DNA of 63,664 nt, the filler included, from Malassezia furfur (lineage: Eukaryota): the NCBI GenBank assembly GCA_052055015.1. It is 19 parts of 19 records of this genome, joined end to end, with 100 filler letters (N's around TTAATTAATTAA, not from the genome) between each part and the next. Parts side by side here need not be neighbours in the genome. Positions count along the whole stretch, not along the records: positions 47,369 to 50,562 come from JBQJIT010000795.1; 18 more parts are not named here. One strand, given 5' to 3'. The notes beneath the pieces are model-generated. The model ran no database searches and was not told the origin of the DNA. It saw only the letters and a list, made by a program, of their open reading frames with translations. Both the position numbers and the translations under genes were made by a program. How positions within the stretch are numbered: position 1 is the first letter of the stretch; each line of letters begins with the position of its first letter. Shown here one piece after another: positions 15,187 to 63,500 of the stretch.

Positions 15187-15311
15187 GGCATANNNNNNNN
15201 NNGCAGGCGCGTCCGTGCCGTGGATTGCCGCGCCGCGCGTGCGCACGCGCCGCGGTTCGAATTTGCCCGCGCGGTCCTAGGGTGCACGCGGCGGGGTGCG
15301 TATCGCCCAGA

Positions 15312-46047: not shown

Positions 46048-47138
46048 ATGCCGATGGAGTTGTCGGTGCGTGCCGCGGTCGACCGCGCGCGTGCGCTCCC
46101 GCTCGGGACGCGGATCTTGGTTACGCTCGTGCTTGCGTTCTCGGGCGTGCTGGCCGTGCTGCGCACGTTCGATGTGCTCGGCACGAGCGCCGGCACGCCG
46201 GGCTCGGCGCTGCGCTACCCCTACCTGGTCGCCGTGCCCGGCGCGGTGCCGTGGTACCCGTGGTGCGTGCGCGCTGCCCACTGACGCAGGACGCTGTTGA
46301 CCGCCGCATTTTGCGAGACGTCCATCGCCGAGTTTGTCGTGACGATGGTTACTGTGCCGCTTGCCGCAGACTACCTCGAGCAGCAGTGGGGCGCCGTGGA
46401 GCTGCTGCGTTTCACGGGCATCGTGGTCTTCGTGTCCAACGCGATCGCTGTCGTGCTCTCGGTGCTGCTGTTTGTCGTGTTCCGCAGTGACCTCCCGCTG
46501 TACGTTGCGCGCGGCGCTTACCCAGCTTCGGCACACACTTTCACGGCCTCGAGGCCCTCCAAACGGGCTTCCTCGTGGCGCTTGCGCAGCTCATCCCGCA
46601 CCACGAGGTTCAGCTGCTCGGCTCGCGTTTCCGCATGCACGTCCACGACCTGCCGATGCTCTACGTCGGCCTGTCGAACGTCATGTGCCTGCTCGGCTTC
46701 ACGTCGCCCTTCTTGCTGATCCAGTTTGGCTGGCTCGTGTCGTGGGTGTATTTGCGCTTCTACCAGCCAAACGAGATGGGCACGCGCGGAGACATGAGCG
46801 ACGCGTTTGCCTTTGTGCACTGGTTCCCGCCGTTTGTGCACAAGCCACTCGGCCGCGTGTGCGAGGTGGTGCACGGCGTTGTGGCGCGCGTCGGCCTCGT
46901 GCCGCGGGCCGAGGCACACTACACGGATCTCGAACTGAACGTCGACGATGAGGTGCCCGGCGCAGTGCCCAGTGGGCGCGCCGAGGCCGAGCGCCGCCGC
47001 GCGATGGCGCTCGAGGCACTTGACCAGCGCATGGCCGATGCCAAGGCGCCATTGCCTTCCGCGCCCGAGGCGCCCGCTGGCAGCGGTGCGCCCAGTGGCT
47101 CGCCCGAAGCGCCGAGGAAATCATCGTCGTCTATGTAG
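46048..47138 (+). CDS. TMEM115/DUF1751 rhomboid-like Golgi membrane protein
   Basis: YPW|TLLTAAFCE, YLEQQWG, QLIPHH, GWLVSWVYLRFY, GDMSDAFAF..WFP and EAERRRAMAL; introns 46263-46289 and 46500-46525. Confidence 0.88.
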
Positions 47139-47268: not shown

Positions 47269-47368
47269 NNNNNNNNNNNNNNNNNNNNNNNNNNNNNNNN
47301 NNNNNNNNNNNNTTAATTAATTAANNNNNNNNNNNNNNNNNNNNNNNNNNNNNNNNNNNNNNNNNNNN

Positions 47369-48056
47369 CAAACGACGGCGGCGGCGTGCCGAGCCGGCGG
47401 AAGCGGCGGACGTGCCACTGCACGACCCGGCTCGCCTCGCCAACGGCGTTTACGCGCAGCAGCGCACGCACCGCCTGCGTCGTCTCGTGCGGTGCTGCGT
47501 CGGGCATCCATCGGCGCACCGCGCGCCAGGCGGGCGCAAACGCACACGGCTCGCCGAGCACACGCAGCAGCAGGGCGCGGTGCCGCGCACACAGCGGCGT
47601 GTGTGGCGCGAGGCGCACAAGCACGTCGAGCAGCTCGCCGGCACGCTGGGCGTCGCCGTCGCGCACGAGGCGCCGAATGCACGCAAAGAACATGGCATGC
47701 AGCTCGCGGTACACGGGTGCGTCGGGCGCGGGACGGCTGCGCACGAGCTCGTGCGCAAGCGCATCGACCGCGGCATCCAGGGACGCCGCATTTTCAAGAG
47801 AAGGGTGATGAAGGGCTGCGCGTACGGCGCCGAGCCGGGCGGGCGCACGCGAGCTTTCCGGGTGGGTGTCGGTGTGGTTGCGCGCTGCGCGCACGGCGTC
47901 GAGCCGTGCGGTCGCAGGCGCGGATGCGGTTGTATGGGGGCGCGCAGGGGCGCGCGCCGGCGCACGCGGCGCGGCGACGCGCAGCGCAGCTGGGTAGGCG
48001 TGTTTGCTAGGCGCATAGGACCACGGCGGACGTGATAATAGCGGAGTTCCGCGCAT
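47369..48056 (-). CDS. Hypothetical helical protein with an Arg/Ala-rich presequence-like start, 3'-partial
   Basis: ORF open to the contig end with amphipathic helices. The start and mitochondrial targeting are uncertain. Confidence 0.45.
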
Positions 48057-48269
48057 CGGCCATGCTCCGCAGCGCGCCACTCCTCACGCACTGCCAATCC
48101 CGCCGCGGCGCTTGACGAGGCTCCGCACTCAGAGGGACCGGCGTGCACCTGCGCGCGGCGCTCCTTCGTCTTCGGACGGACGGCCGCCGCCGCACTCTGC
48201 AGCGTGCATTAGTCATCGCGCCGGCACGTTACCGCCCTAGTAGGCCCAAGTTGCGCGCGCGTGCTGCGG

Positions 48270-48540
48270 CAGGCGCTTCGTCTTCTGCCTTCATGTACGT
48301 TGCCCAGGGGGTCGCGGGATGACCACTTGCCAATCGGCTCGAGCTCTTCGGAGCAAAGACTCTGTGCAGCCAAAAATGTCATAGTTACTCTGACACGACC
48401 CCCGCCCACACACGGACAGGACTAACCACAGCCCTCCAGCGCTGGCACCCTCTGCCGCATCGTCCATAGGCCGTACGCACAGCAGCCCCCGCGGCCGCTG
48501 TCACGGCTCATGCACGCAGCCACTATACCCCTGACTTGGT
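48270..48540 (+). ncRNA. Putative non-coding snoRNA host transcript (boundaries approximate)
   Basis: GTACGT donor at 48295, GACTAAC branch site and CACAG acceptor at 48431; no convincing spliced ORF. Confidence 0.55.
48307..48403 (+). ncRNA. snR63: Intronic box C/D snoRNA, snR63/SNORD46(U46)-like
   Basis: Terminal stem GGGGGTCG/CGACCCCC; box C-like GGGATGA at 48316-48322; box D CTGA at 48390-48393; 12-nt guide GTCATAGTTACT complementary to LSU rRNA AGUAACUAUGAC; lies within intron 48295-48431. Confidence 0.88.
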
Positions 48541-48555
48541 CCACCCTACTATACC

Positions 48556-49912
48556 CTACGGCGCCAGCTCGAGGAACGCACGCGCAACGAGGAGCCGGTC
48601 GTCGGTCGACAGCGCAAGCGGCGTGCCGGCCGCGACGTACAGCACGACGCCGGGGCGCAGTGCGTGCGTCTTGCCGTCCGCATGCAACGTCCCGCTGCCC
48701 TCGTACGCCAACACGATCGAGGGGCCCTGCACCCCGCGCTGCTCGCTGCACTTCGCGTCCTTCTCGAGGATGGTGACCAGCACCGAGAACTCGTCGATCG
48801 GCGGGTCGTACAGCAGCGACGGATTCGGCTGCGCCGAGTCCCCGTCCCACTTTTCGGCACGCAGCAGCTGGTCGACGGCACGCGCACTTTGGTAGGTGAG
48901 CATGTCCACGAGCACGTCGACGTCGCGCGCCTTGGGCGTCAGACCGGCGCGCACGACGTTGTCCGACGCCGCCATACACTCGAGGATCTGGCCCGAGAGG
49001 TAGGCGTGCGGCTCGTCGGCGCCGAGGAACAGCGCCTGACCCTGCTCGAGGTGCACGACGTTCAGAAAGTAGGTACACAGCACGCCAATGTCTTTGGGGT
49101 ATTGCGTGTTGAGGCGCACCACGAGCCGCGCAACGTCGTCGCTCACCTCGAGCGCCTCGCCGTGGTCCAGCGCGGCCTGGTAGCGCTCCGCGAGCTGCGT
49201 GACCACCCGCTCGTACGTGTCGGTCTGGCAGTGCATCAGCGCGGCAAACGCGTGCTTCAGTGCGTCGTGCACGCGCGGCTCATTGCCCGACTGCCCCGCG
49301 TCCCACTGCGCGTCCTGGACGTGTGCGGCGTCGTCGAGCTCGGCCTGCAGCGCATCGTCGGCGCCCATCGCCTCGCGCAGCTCCGGCACGCTGTGCACAA
49401 ACTGCGCGATTTCGCGGACGGGCCGGAAGCCACAGAAGCCCTCAAAGGTGTTGATCGCGATGGCCATCTCGGGCTTGTGGTTCGCGTCCTTGTACATGTC
49501 GGGCTTCTCGGCATGCAGGCGCTCGGCCAGCTTCTTGTCGGGATGCGCCTGGATGCTGAGCGCCTTGGCGATGCTCAGCACCTTGAACAGGAACGGCAGG
49601 GCGCCGTCTTCGGGCACGCCGTACTTGTCGACGACCGCCGAACCGATCAGCTGCGGGTCCTTGCGCAGCTCATCGTTCAGCAGCGGGTGTTTGTCGTCGC
49701 TGCACACCACACGCAACGGCAGCGTCGGGTGCGTGCCCATCCACAGCTGCGTCAGTGGCGCGACGTACCTCGGCGTACGGCTTGTCGGCCTTGCGCTCGA
49801 ACTGCAGCTGGCACGTCGCCTCTGCAAGGTCCGCACAGATGCTATTCTTGTCGCCGCCTGGCACGCCCCAGTCGTACGACTGCACGCCCGGAATCAGCTG
49901 GAATACGGTCAT
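48556..49912 (-). CDS. PMI40: Mannose-6-phosphate isomerase, class I
   Basis: QSYDWG, PYAE|LWMGTHP (22-nt intron 49747-49768), LSIQAHPDK, YKDANHKPEM, HAYLSG and MAASDNVVRAG. Confidence 0.96.
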
Positions 49913-50004
49913 GGACGCTATCAAGCAACGTTGCACCGAGCGCACACCTTCGCAGCATCTGCAGCCCCTCCACACACGTGCAGCAATGGTTTACCCTGCT
50001 CCCT

Positions 50005-50562
50005 CTATGCACCGTACGGCCCTCGTCCGCGGCCGCCACGCGCGGGGGGGCCGCCGTACGGCCCGGACGATGCATTCTGGTTGTAGTATGCACCGTACCC
50101 GCCACCGTACGGCCCTTGTGACGCGCCCTGCGCGCCGTACGCACCGCCATAGCTGCCGTATGGCCCGGCGCCATAGCTGCCGTAGCCACCCGCGCCGTAC
50201 GGCCCTGCACCGCCGCCGCCGTAGCCCCCATACGCGCGGCTGTACGCCGTTGCACCGTAGGGCCCAGCACCATACGGCCCAGCACCATACGGTCCCGCGC
50301 CGTACGGCCCGCTCGGCGCCGCCTGGCCGTAGGCGCCGCCACCGTAGGGCCCGGCGCCATAGGGTCCGGCGCCATACGGCCCAGCACCATACGGCCCCGC
50401 ACTCCGGCCGTACGCATTCGCGCCCGTCGCATAGCCGCCGCCGTCGTAGCTGCCGTACGGGCCATGTGCATAATCCGGCTGCGCGTTGCGGCCGTACATG
50501 GCCTGCCCCCACGCCTCGCGGTCCCTGCCGCGCCCGCCACGTCCGCCGCCGCGGGGGCCGCC
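50005..50562 (-). CDS. Gly/Tyr-rich low-complexity C-terminus ((GPYGA)n, RGG) of a probable RNA-binding protein
   Basis: Degenerate 15-bp repeats encoding GPYGA, RGG boxes, ending RGGRGRGPYGA*. Confidence 0.7.
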   Translation of the reverse strand, partial: GGPRGGGRGGRGRDREAWGQAMYGRNAQPDYAHGPYGSYDGGGYATGANAYGRSAGPYGAGPYGAGPYGAGPYGGGAYGQAAPSGPYGAGPYGAGPYGAGPYGATAYSRAYGGYGGGGAGPYGAGGYGSYGAGPYGSYGGAYGAQGASQGPYGGGYGAYYNQNASSGPYGGPPARGGRGRGPYGA

Positions 50563-54725: not shown

Positions 54726-55150
54726 ATGGCGAGCAGCGCCGCGAACCCGGTGCCGACGGGGACCGCGCCCGGCAAGCAGAAGTCCAAGGCGTATCTATCG
54801 TCGGTAGCGATCCAGAGCGATGCGACCAAGTACCGCCAGAAGTACAAGGAGCTCAAGCGCAAAGTTCGCGAGATTGAGAGCGTACGTCGATGCGTGCCAC
54901 TGACCCCAGGAAAATGACAAACTTCAAGCTACGACGCTCCGCATCAAGCGTAACATTCAGCGTCTCCAGCTGGAGCGCGCGTACGTACACCGCCTAACCC
55001 AGCATTCTCTACGAGCGGATCGAGTCAGAAATGCGCTCGCTTCCGATCCACGAGCCGCACGCGCCGGTCGAGGCGGCGGCCACATCGGTGCCGAAGACCG
55101 AGGATGAAGCGGAGACCGACATTGGTGTCGAGCTGGAGAACACCGTGTAG
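54726..55150 (+). CDS. Small INO80-complex coiled-coil subunit (Iec3/INO80E/TFPT-like)
   Basis: Spliced KYRQKYKELKRKVREIES|ENDKL...IQRLQLERA|ILYERI; introns 54882-54909 and 54981-55002. Confidence 0.7.
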
Positions 55151-55324
55151 TATATACGTAGACATACCCTTTCTTCGTGGCCCATCCACGGCGCGCCCTG
55201 CTTGCGGCCAGCGGCCGCGCCCTGGCTTGGGGATATATGTGGAGCGCCGTACCTACCGGGCATTCCAGATTTGTTGGCTGTGGCCTCCGCTCCAGCATCG
55301 CCGGTCGTGGGGACGGACACGGGC

Positions 55325-60507: not shown

Positions 60508-63500
60508 ATGGACGCGTGGGACGACGAGGCGCTCGATGACTGGTACGCGTCGGACGTGGCTTCCTCCGCCGAAGACTCTGCTGCTGAGCAGGAGGCAGCC
60601 AGTGAGACATCTGAAGTTGGCCAGGTCGACGATGACGCGCGCCTAGACCTGCTCCGCCCGCCCATCCTGTCCATCTGTGCCGCATTGGGCGGCTACGAGC
60701 ATGTCGACGTGGATGGGCGCCTGGAACTTGTGTACCGACTCGGAGACGACTGCCTAGGTATGTGACACATTCACACAGAATGCCTGCGCGATTTGCGTCG
60801 TCTCTGGCGCCAGGACGACACAGACAACAGCCGTGCCGTCGCGCGTGTCTTTGCCGAGCTGGGCACGCTGCATAATGACCTGATCCCTATTCTGCTGCAC
60901 ACGGCAGGTATGGGCGAGAAGGCGGACAAGATTGCGCTCGCTTGCAGTATGTTACCCCCCTGACCACAGCCGACTTGATTACGGCGCTCACATGGCCGAT
61001 TGACTGGAACGCCGAGGTACATGACATTGTGACGCGCGAGGAGGAGGAGGACGGCGTGCTTTCCAAGCTGGTGGGTCTGCAGGCCGCACAGGTGCAGTAC
61101 AAAGCGTCGGTGTTGCGCGTGCGCGCCAAGGAGCAGCGCCTTGTAAGTCGGACGGTGGTTGGGTGCGTGATGCGTCACTTGTTGCTGCCCGCGCTGGCCA
61201 AGCCGCGTGTGGACCGCACGGAGCGCGACACAGGCTTGATTGGCATGTGCTTGCACCTCTTCCGCAACCTGCTCGCGATCCGCGACCCTGTTGCCCACAC
61301 GACGAGCAGCGCGGCGGTCGTGGCCAACGCGACGCTGCAGAGTCTGCTCGTGGAGCAGCTCGAGGAGCACTTTGTGCTCGACACACTGCTGATGCTCGCG
61401 AGCAATGCCGACACAAAGGAGTATGAGGCGTGGGTGCCCGTCGCCGCCGACTGCGTGTACCAGCTGTACATTGGCTCGGATGTACACGAAATCGCAACCG
61501 TCGAGGCGGCGACGGCGCGTGCGTCATCCAGCGCGCTTGCTGCCTCGCTCGACCATGAGGCGCGGCAGAAGCGGCATGGGGTGAACAATGCGCGGCACTC
61601 GCGCTTCGGCACCACCATTCAGTTCCGTGCGCACGACGGATCGCTGCGTGTCGCGCGGCGTCCCGCGTCGCTGGTCGAGTCAGTGCGCCGTCTGGAGCAG
61701 GACATCGCCGACCGCGGGCGCCGCAAGATTTCGCGCAAGCGGCGCGCGACGGAGCGCGGCGCGCCGCAGCGCTACACGGCGTGGACGAGCGGCGCACGTG
61801 CGGTGCTCCGGCGGTGGGCCGACCGGTTCGTGCAGGACGGCGCGTTTGGGGTGCTGGAGCAACAGTATCTCAAGGATATCCACGCAGAGCGCGAGCGCGT
61901 CGGCGATCTGGACGCGGCACGGTGCAAGGCGCTGCAGCTCGCGACCTTTTTCCTGGACTATTTCCGCGCGCGGCGGGCGAACGACGCGTCGGCGTTCGGC
62001 TTTGGGCTCGTGGCTGCATGGCTCGAGCCGTGGGCGTTCCGATTGGCGCGCAGCCGCGCGGCGATGGCGCTCGAGGCGAAGCAATGGCTCGAGTTTGTGG
62101 CCGCCGTGCGCCTCTGGACGTCGCTGCTGTGCCTCTTGCACGCGCTCGCGCACGGCTCGGCAGAGGAGCGGCAGGTGGCCGACGAGCTGCAAAACACGCT
62201 GTACTACGATGGCGACCTGCTTGACACGGCCCTGCAGGTAATGCACGCGTACTCTGCGCAAAGCTTTGCGTGCCTCGAGGCGGTGCTCGACTTTGCGTAC
62301 ACCATGCCGCGCCTCCTCGAGAAGCATGCGGCGCGGCACGAGTACGTGTTTGTCAAGGCGCGCCACGGCGGACACGACGATGAGGAGTCGGTGTCGCGCA
62401 GCGAGCGCCTCTTCCGCTTCCAGACCTTCCAGCGCGCCATGGCTACGACGCGCCTCGCGCACGTCTGCACGCAGTACCTCGTGCGCTGGCAGGACTCGGC
62501 GCAGCCGCGCACAATGCTGCCGCGCCTTGCGAGTGTGGTGCACCGCATCGCCATCAAGGCCGAGCGCCCTGCGCTTTTCTTTGCGGCCAAGACGCGCGAG
62601 GTATGGGTGCGCCTGCTGCGCGGCAGCGACCAGGCGCTCGCGGCGTGTGACGCCGAGGCCACCGCGACACTGGTCAAGCTTGCGCATTACATTGAGCGCC
62701 AGTTTGCCAAGCTCGACGGCGCGCTGCAGGAGGCCTTTGACGCGAACAAGCGCCCGGCGCGGGCGCCCAAGGCGGACAAGATCCCTGCCGAGATCTGCGT
62801 GCGCCCGGGCCTCGAGCACAGCGAGCAGATCGGCGTCGCGGTCGGCCTACTCGCCGAGGAGCACAAACTTGCCGAGGTCACCTGGGTCAAGTTCCACCTC
62901 GAGCTCGCGAGCGCCGCGCGCAAGGCGCTCATGGCGTCCGACGCGGACGCCGACCCCGCGGCACCAAGCGCCGCGGTGCAGGAGCAGTTTGCTGTGCACA
63001 GTACGTCGCTTTTCTCACCCAGCCCTCACGACCGATTCGGACGCAGTGTGGACCGAAGTCACACGCAATCCTGCGCTCAAGCTGCTGCTGCGCCTCGTGG
63101 GCCTCGAAGCGAGCGCCGAGGAGGCACACTGGGTCTGGACCGTGCCGCGCAGCTGCACGCCCGCGTCGCTCGATCGCGACGCACGCATCATCGACCAGTA
63201 CCTCGCACAGCCGCTGCTGATCGAGGGCGAGCTGCGCGACCAGGTGCAGCGCGTGCGTGCGCCGCGCGCGCGCACCGACGCACCCAGCGACGCGGCGGAC
63301 GACGCCGCGCGGCCGCGCAAGCGCACGCGCACCGACGCCGATGGCCGCACGGCCAAGAAACGCGCGCCGCGCATCCCTCGCTGGCTCGACAACGAGTTCA
63401 TCGAGGACAGCGACGAGGAGCTTGCGTTTGCGATGGCCGATGTGCCGCGCACGAGCTCGCGCAGTGCCTCACCGCCCGCGCTGTTTGCCGAGGCACGCGA

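Follow-up and report, generated by a model that had tools for sequence, protein, structure and literature searches.

What a 137-nt intron is doing on the plus strand of a short interval next to a gene on the opposite strand is the question raised by positions 48295-48431 of the window, i.e., the whole 63,664-nt stretch of Malassezia furfur DNA that was analysed here. We consider it highly probable, on the basis of the DNA sequence and its relatives, that this interval is the intron of a short two-exon, probably non-coding Pol II host transcript, and that it encodes a box C/D snoRNA which spans roughly 97 nt, from about 48307 to 48403. That this snoRNA is transcribed, spliced, processed, assembled into an snoRNP and used for methylation is what we infer. 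The elements of the locus are as follows.

48295..48431 (+), intron with the snoRNA, 137 nt, GTACGT ... GACTAAC-CACAG, predicted to be spliceosomal
48295..48300 (+), 5′ splice site GTACGT, then 6 nt to the stem
48307..48314 (+), 5′ strand of the terminal stem, GGGGGTCG, paired with 48396-48403 in the MFE fold, then C
48316..48322 (+), box C variant GGGATGA, with G at position 2, where U is usual, and an intact GA core
48323..48338 (+), element CCACTTGCCAATCGGC between box C and the D′-like box, occupying the D′ guide position
48323..48334 (+), CCACTTGCCAAT, the first 12 nt of this element after box C
48339..48342 (+), putative D′-like box TCGA, so assigned because it precedes the hairpin and has a GA core; invariant in the window and in the related loci L043 and L084
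48343..48354 (+), internal hairpin GCTC-TTCG-GAGC, present in the MFE fold
48355..48359 (+), putative C′-like AAAGA
48360..48372 (+), block CTCTGTGCAGCCA after the C′-like AAAGA; from 48356 onward invariant in the window, L043 and L084
48373..48377 (+), AAAAT, between CTCTGTGCAGCCA and the guide
48378..48389 (+), 12-nt guide GTCATAGTTACT, complement of LSU helix 69
48390..48393 (+), box D CTGA, then CA
48396..48403 (+), 3′ strand of the terminal stem, CGACCCCC, paired in the MFE fold, then 16 nt to the branch site
48420..48426 (+), branch-site consensus GACTAAC, identical in L043 and TGCTAAC in L084
48427..48431 (+), CACAG, with the 3′ splice site CAG at 48429..48431

When the sequence was re-read, every element that had been named in the sequence-only reading of this DNA was found in its place. 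Both the UUCG hairpin and the terminal stem of 8 bp form in the MFE fold, whose energy (z = -0.31) is unremarkable; since 68 of 200 shuffled sequences were equally stable, the folding energy is no evidence either way. The consensus of box C is RUGAUGA, and a crude scan of both strands for a box C variant with CTGA at 45-160 nt and at least 6 bp of terminal stem returned the snoRNA site as the sole box C/D-shaped site in the window. The 16-mer formed by the guide and box D occurs there as a single copy even when two mismatches are allowed, and it had matches in none of 100 shuffles. In the window, which has a GC content of 69%, 13 islands of low GC stand out, and the snoRNA is among them.

The candidates for boxes C′ and D′, AAAGA and TCGA, are degenerate, in that they retain the GA cores alone, and they flank the hairpin on its two sides. 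The succession of TCGA, hairpin, AAA and GA looks like an internal kink-turn, with the GA of D′, a helix, a 3-nt bulge and the GA of C′. In L043 the hairpin GCTC-TTCG-GAGC is identical, and in L084 its place is taken by a longer hairpin with another sequence. Such a changed hairpin fits a structural role of the helix, in a comparison of three sequences of which two are identical at this point.

The target of the snoRNA can be predicted from its guide. The guide GTCATAGTTACT forms 12 contiguous Watson-Crick pairs with helix 69 of eukaryote-type LSU loci, and its complement was located in eukaryote-type LSU rRNA, where one locus scores as positions 2200-2320 of the LSU_rRNA_eukarya model. These loci were fetched by means of the helix 69 motif itself, such that they show where the motif lies and say nothing on its frequency. 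According to the box D+5 rule, the base to be methylated is the one opposite the fifth nucleotide upstream of box D. Here that nucleotide is T48385, whose partner is the second A of UAAC, with C-U-A-U after it. In yeast, the helix 69 loop carries Am2256, which is guided by snR63, as well as Psi2258 and Psi2260, according to a table in PMC2794176, and the predicted target register of the window guide fits these three yeast positions. Both parts of the earlier proposal, namely that the guide is the complement of helix 69 and that the D+5 position points to the second A of UAAC, agree with the LSU loci and with the tabulated yeast modifications (PMC2794176). The target sequence in this organism itself is assumed from the near-universal conservation of helix 69.

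By analogy with other snoRNPs, Snu13, Nop56, Nop58 and Nop1/fibrillarin would assemble on the box C/D kink-turn while it is still within the intron of the pre-RNA. Splicing and debranching would follow, and exonucleases would then trim the intron as far as the terminal stem, which the proteins protect. The guide of 12 nt would pair with the loop and the 5′ strand of LSU helix 69, and fibrillarin would be expected to methylate the 2′-OH of the adenosine opposite the fifth guide base upstream of box D, which corresponds to yeast Am2256 (snR63).

S. cerevisiae snR63 shares with the window RNA the predicted target nucleotide (25S Am2256), the class and the use of the box D guide. However, snR63 is much longer and, like most S. 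cerevisiae box C/D snoRNAs, is transcribed independently, whereas the window RNA is intronic, is about 97 nt long and has GGGAUGA as box C, and no Rfam model unites the two. Human SNORD46/U46 is intron-encoded. The Rfam family for it (RF00218) has the same class and guide as the window RNA, with one base of its consensus different next to box D. A counterpart is described in another fungus: N. crassa CD33 is a 102-nt box C/D snoRNA located in an intron, its D guide is directed to 26S-Am2218, and PMC2780460 lists it as the equivalent of snR63 in both yeasts and of U46 in Arabidopsis and human. CD33 and the window RNA are both fungal, box C/D, intronic and directed to a helix 69 adenosine, and they were compared by their descriptions. 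The same source places 45 of the 55 N. crassa box C/D genes in introns, the hosts being coding or non-coding (PMC2780460). The main text of "The fungal snoRNAome" (PMC5824354) includes neither snR63 nor host genes. The window snoRNA is therefore ordinary in kind, as a helix 69 guide in an intron is already well known in other fungi.

The sequence-only reading had suggested that covariance models for SNORD46 or snR63 should recognise this RNA, and the outcome goes formally against it: neither the SNORD46 model (RF00218, gathering score 40) nor an snR63 model gave a match at E up to 10 in the 321 nt scanned, and no Rfam family reached its gathering score anywhere in the window. The only snoRNA matches at E up to 10 were snoR442 (RF01232; 18.3 bits, cut-off 50) and GlsR7 (RF02476; 15.2 bits, cut-off 75). 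Both are due to the guide and box D alone, where these families share 14-15 nt with the window, and nothing is shared outside the guide. The same picture emerged elsewhere. Twenty loci with the same guide also failed to reach any Rfam gathering score, and those among the other loci that are clear box C/D relatives attained 22-28 bits against the SNORD46 cut-off of 40. Because such clear relatives likewise fall below the threshold, we read the absence of an Rfam match as a limit in the reach of the models. The SNORD46 family was not found in G001, a genome considered further below, or in 14 control genomes, which is an uninformative result. The window RNA is therefore filed here as a probable functional equivalent of the snR63/SNORD46 group, an assignment by predicted function that makes no claim of common descent.

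A scan of metagenome contigs with the 16-mer of guide and box D yielded at least 120 loci, of which 24 matches were set aside as duplicates or for insufficient flank. Among the 96 distinct full-context matches listed, 38 had a box C at 30-125 nt upstream together with a terminal stem of at least 4 bp, as compared to 1/96 in mirror controls on the opposite strand and 6/228 at shifted positions. When at least 5 bp of stem were required, 33 of the matches listed qualified, and the mirror and shifted controls had 0 and 2, respectively. This enrichment over the controls indicates that the 16-mer marks a widespread eukaryotic box C/D family.

Within this family, L043 and L084 were the only loci, among the 120 listed, that resemble the window beyond the guide (BLAST with 48316-48377 as the query). 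Positions 48333-48372 of the window and 1458-1497 of L043 are identical at 40 of 40 nucleotides, and this in loci that differ in GC content (54% in L043 versus 69% in the window). L084, with a GC content of 45%, shares 18 and 13 nt on the two sides of the hairpin, the former being an 18/18 identity between window 48356-48373 and L084 280-297. Box C reads AGGATGA in both loci and thus shows the same departure at position 2 as the GGGATGA of the window. Outside the snoRNA, the flanks of the three sequences do not align, and the terminal stem of 8 bp belongs to the window alone, L043 and L084 having none.

These comparisons also bear on the most sceptical explanation, namely that motifs have come together by chance in an intergenic region and that there is no functional RNA. 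It would account for the lack of an Rfam match at threshold and for a fold energy like that of shuffled sequence. Against it speak the uniqueness of the 16-mer in the window, the 40/40 identity of the interior with a genome of 54% GC despite diverged flanks and a diverged neighbouring protein, and the enrichment of the box C/D arrangement at the 16-mer across metagenomes, such that we regard chance as barely credible.

A real snoRNA need not be released by splicing, and the intron has to be argued for separately. The introns of the three sequences compare as follows.

Window, 48295-48431, 137 nt, GTACGT ... GACTAAC-CACAG, 21 nt from the 5′ site to box C, 32 nt from box D to the branch A
L043, 1410-1560, 151 nt, GTATGT ... 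GACTAAC-AAGTAG, 30 nt from the 5′ site to box C, 37 nt from box D to the branch A
L084, 164-391, 228 nt, GTATGT ... TGCTAAC-GCATTGCAG, 62 nt from the 5′ site to box C, 65 nt from box D to the branch A

In the window, L043 and L084 alike, GTAYGT, CTAAC and YAG bracket the snoRNA, and the sequence between these signals and the snoRNA cannot be aligned. A pair of such signals was present in 3 of the 94 usable 16-mer contexts listed (L033, L043 and L084), and in 0/89 and 1/206 of the controls. L033 itself is intron-shaped around position 1500, with GTACGT upstream, AGGATGA as box C and the same guide; its interior is unrelated, and it has no PMI (mannose-6-phosphate isomerase) neighbour.

It is conceivable that the snoRNA derives from a transcription unit of its own, or is trimmed by nucleases from an unspliced precursor, and that the splice-like signals go unused. 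Yeast snR63 is independently transcribed, and the 8-bp terminal stem could support processing without splicing. Yet GTAYGT and CTAAC-YAG are kept in all three sequences amid surroundings that cannot be aligned, and the signal pairs are as rare in controls as just described. The Neurospora equivalent is moreover intronic, as given in PMC2780460. Release without splicing thus appears improbable to us, and the intron-encoded snoRNA remains the preferred reading.

The length of the intron deserves separate consideration, since it had been described as an outlier among introns that otherwise all measured 21-42 nt. Ten intron candidates in the window, with splice motifs and 60 or more open codons to either side, measure 21-29 nt, and the 5′ site that recurs most often in the short candidates is GTACGT. 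One of the short introns, the 22-nt PMI intron at 49747-49768, is confirmed by protein homology, as removing it brings back a conserved PMI motif together with the PMI domains of Pfam. The same filter of motifs and ORFs was also passed by longer candidates, of 58-224 nt, and several of them have a 3′ site in common with a short candidate or a frame that is open without splicing. With these candidates remaining, the statement that every other intron is of 21-42 nt is plausible and unproven. Two other low-GC intron-like intervals that are also longer, at 55009-55167 (-) and 60758-60969 (+), were found to have no snoRNA boxes.

For comparison, M. restricta has a median intron length of 30 nt and a GC content of 55.8% (PMC9241646), whereas the GC content of the window is 69%. 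An intron of about 137 nt where others have shrunk to about 21-29 nt apparently shows that its length has been kept for the snoRNA; it would be 5-6 times longer than the others because the snoRNA must fit inside. Such a long snoRNA intron amid introns of 21-29 nt agrees with the idea, put forward in PMC8476143, that the introns retained by intron-poor fungi often contain snoRNAs, and Malassezia sympodialis is among the species treated there.

If the snoRNA is intronic, a host transcript should exist, and its surroundings are the following.

48084..48294 (+), interval for the candidate host promoter and exon 1, 211 nt, no ATG
48432..48555 (+), start of the candidate host exon 2, 124 nt, then antisense to the PMI coding region
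48556..49912 (-), mannose-6-phosphate isomerase (type I, PMI), with Pfam matches PF20511, PF20512 and PF01238 and matches to atlas clusters, containing a 22-nt intron
47313-48083 (-), upstream ORF, an uncertain gene

The locus had been said to lie between two minus-strand genes. This holds on the downstream side, where PMI is confirmed, and is less certain upstream, where the ORF at 47313-48083 has no Pfam match and has weak colinear similarity to L043 that is spread over two frames. L043 also has a colinear PMI homologue adjoining the snoRNA intron, at the corresponding place and on the corresponding strand. From the 3′ splice site to the PMI stop codon, the distance is about 94 nt in L043 and 124 nt in the window.

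The host is likely to be without a coding frame, judging from its sequence and that of the relatives. The interval before the intron contains no ATG in its 211 nt, no ORF across the splice junction is common to the window, L043 and L084, and tblastx found no similarity among the three in the exons, where its matches were confined to the snoRNA and PMI. These results support the earlier proposal of a non-coding host. Its further suggestion, that the host exists only to release this snoRNA, is one that we likewise infer.

A different view of the host would be that it is not purely non-coding, and that it either encodes a micropeptide or is part of a longer plus-strand antisense transcript that regulates PMI and carries the snoRNA as a passenger. 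Exon 2 does extend for 124 nt before the convergent PMI stop codon, its first ATG (+78 nt) begins a frame of 63 codons or more that extends into PMI in antisense, and the arrangement of host and PMI is kept in L043. However, long open frames are frequent by chance at 69% GC, the stretch of 211 nt before the junction lacks an ATG, and the ORFs across or after the junction are wholly different in the three sequences, L043 and L084 having unrelated short ORFs of 17 to 82 codons; the exons are moreover blank in tblastx. On balance, we hold a coding or PMI-regulating host to be unlikely.

The core of the original proposal, an intronic box C/D snoRNA directed to helix 69 and released from a non-coding host, is thus supported by the comparative tests. 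It is supported because L043 and L084 keep the snoRNA, its box C and the splice signals while the exons and the rest of the intron have diverged, and because L043 keeps the gene neighbourhood and no ORF across the junction is shared. The comparative argument rests on three sequences, two of which are identical in the hairpin.

Non-coding snoRNA hosts of this general kind are known. The UHG- and gas5-like hosts of mammals and of N. crassa (clusters I-V) likewise carry intronic snoRNAs between canonical splice sites and have short unconserved ORFs, as described in PMC2780460. The window host differs from them in that it has one intron with one snoRNA and no cluster, its exons are very short and lie between two genes, and it is known from DNA alone.

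Within the interval for promoter and exon 1, the string CTTCGTCTTC has its only two copies in the window, at 48164-48173 and 48276-48285 (+), so that both lie upstream of the snoRNA intron; two copies occurred in none of 100 shuffles. The ends of exon 1 in L043 and L084 carry similar pyrimidine-rich strings, CTTTCGTC and CTTTCTCGTC. The string CTTCGTCTTC may be a mark of the start site or a promoter element.

The interior of the snoRNA is puzzling. An identity of 40 nt between the window and L043 is stronger than what would be expected for the interior of a box C/D snoRNA. The invariant interior includes the antisense-like element at the D′ position as well as the block CUCUGUGCAGCC. The former, at 48323-48338, is partly kept in L043 and L084, where TTGCCA and TCGGC are invariant and 1-nt indels occur.

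The first 12 nt of this element had been said to occur in human SNORD46 as well. The string at 48323-48334 is indeed letter-identical to a stretch of the Rfam SNORD46 consensus, and by a naive estimate the chance of an exact 12-mer in two RNAs of such size is about 1e-4 to 1e-3. Yet in SNORD46 it immediately precedes the D guide, in the window it directly follows box C, and L043 and L084 retain it in part and never exactly. Because it is found elsewhere in SNORD46 and is inexact in the closest relatives, the 12-mer is no sign of SNORD46 homology, and we regard the sharing as coincidence or convergence.

Complements of 48323-48338 and 48358-48377, together with their L043 and L084 versions, were sought in rDNA pieces that are eukaryote-type and apparently non-fungal, and none was conserved there. 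These pieces stem from a genome-contig scan with the helix 69 motif, which returned at least 30 loci comprising archaeal 23S and eukaryote-type sequences; a corresponding scan of viral contigs gave 10 loci, none of them rDNA. For 18S, the pieces covered comprise a few 3′ ends, likewise non-fungal. One complement, at positions 1615-1634 of L146 (18/20 to 48358-48377), falls into an AT-rich LSU expansion segment that is missing from the other loci, and was dismissed as chance. The window contains no other complement of the three elements.

Among the loci inspected for rDNA, L131, a 1.16-Mb contig labelled as bacterial whose locus has a GC content of 69%, carries LSU_rRNA-like eukaryotic fragments at 6175-6341 (167 nt) and 6460-6580 (121 nt). 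The genome that contains it, G001, has no match to window positions 47400-50500.

Because the interior is identical at 40 of 40 positions despite diverged flanks and a diverged neighbouring protein, one might consider that the snoRNA makes a second contact, for example through a second guide or by pairing in the manner of a chaperone with pre-rRNA or with some other stable RNA, and that its dedicated two-exon CTTCGTCTTC host is a conserved, co-regulated mini-gene beside PMI across distant fungal lineages. We regard this as a doubtful extension of the intron-encoded snoRNA.

With respect to its significance, the locus would add an unannotated gene whose function can be predicted, a guide for the helix 69 Am, and annotation based on ORFs would miss it. 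The modified adenosine lies in a region that forms an intersubunit bridge and contacts the A-site tRNA, as noted in PMC2794176. For a specialist in snoRNAs, the unusual aspects would be the invariant interior and the conserved mini-host beside PMI only, the rest being unsurprising.

As regards the wider surroundings, no tRNA genes were found in the window. Plus-strand ORFs at 46285-47138, with a candidate 27-nt intron at 46263-46289, resemble a membrane protein in their reading; their end lies about 1.1 kb upstream of the snoRNA locus. The window also contains 37 runs of N, for the most part recognisable as paired 44-nt runs that are 12 bases apart (e.g., 47269-47312 and 47325-47368) and recur every 3.3-3.4 kb, along with a single run of 10 nt at 15193-15202; the runs have the appearance of masking, and they interrupt ORFs near the snoRNA locus.
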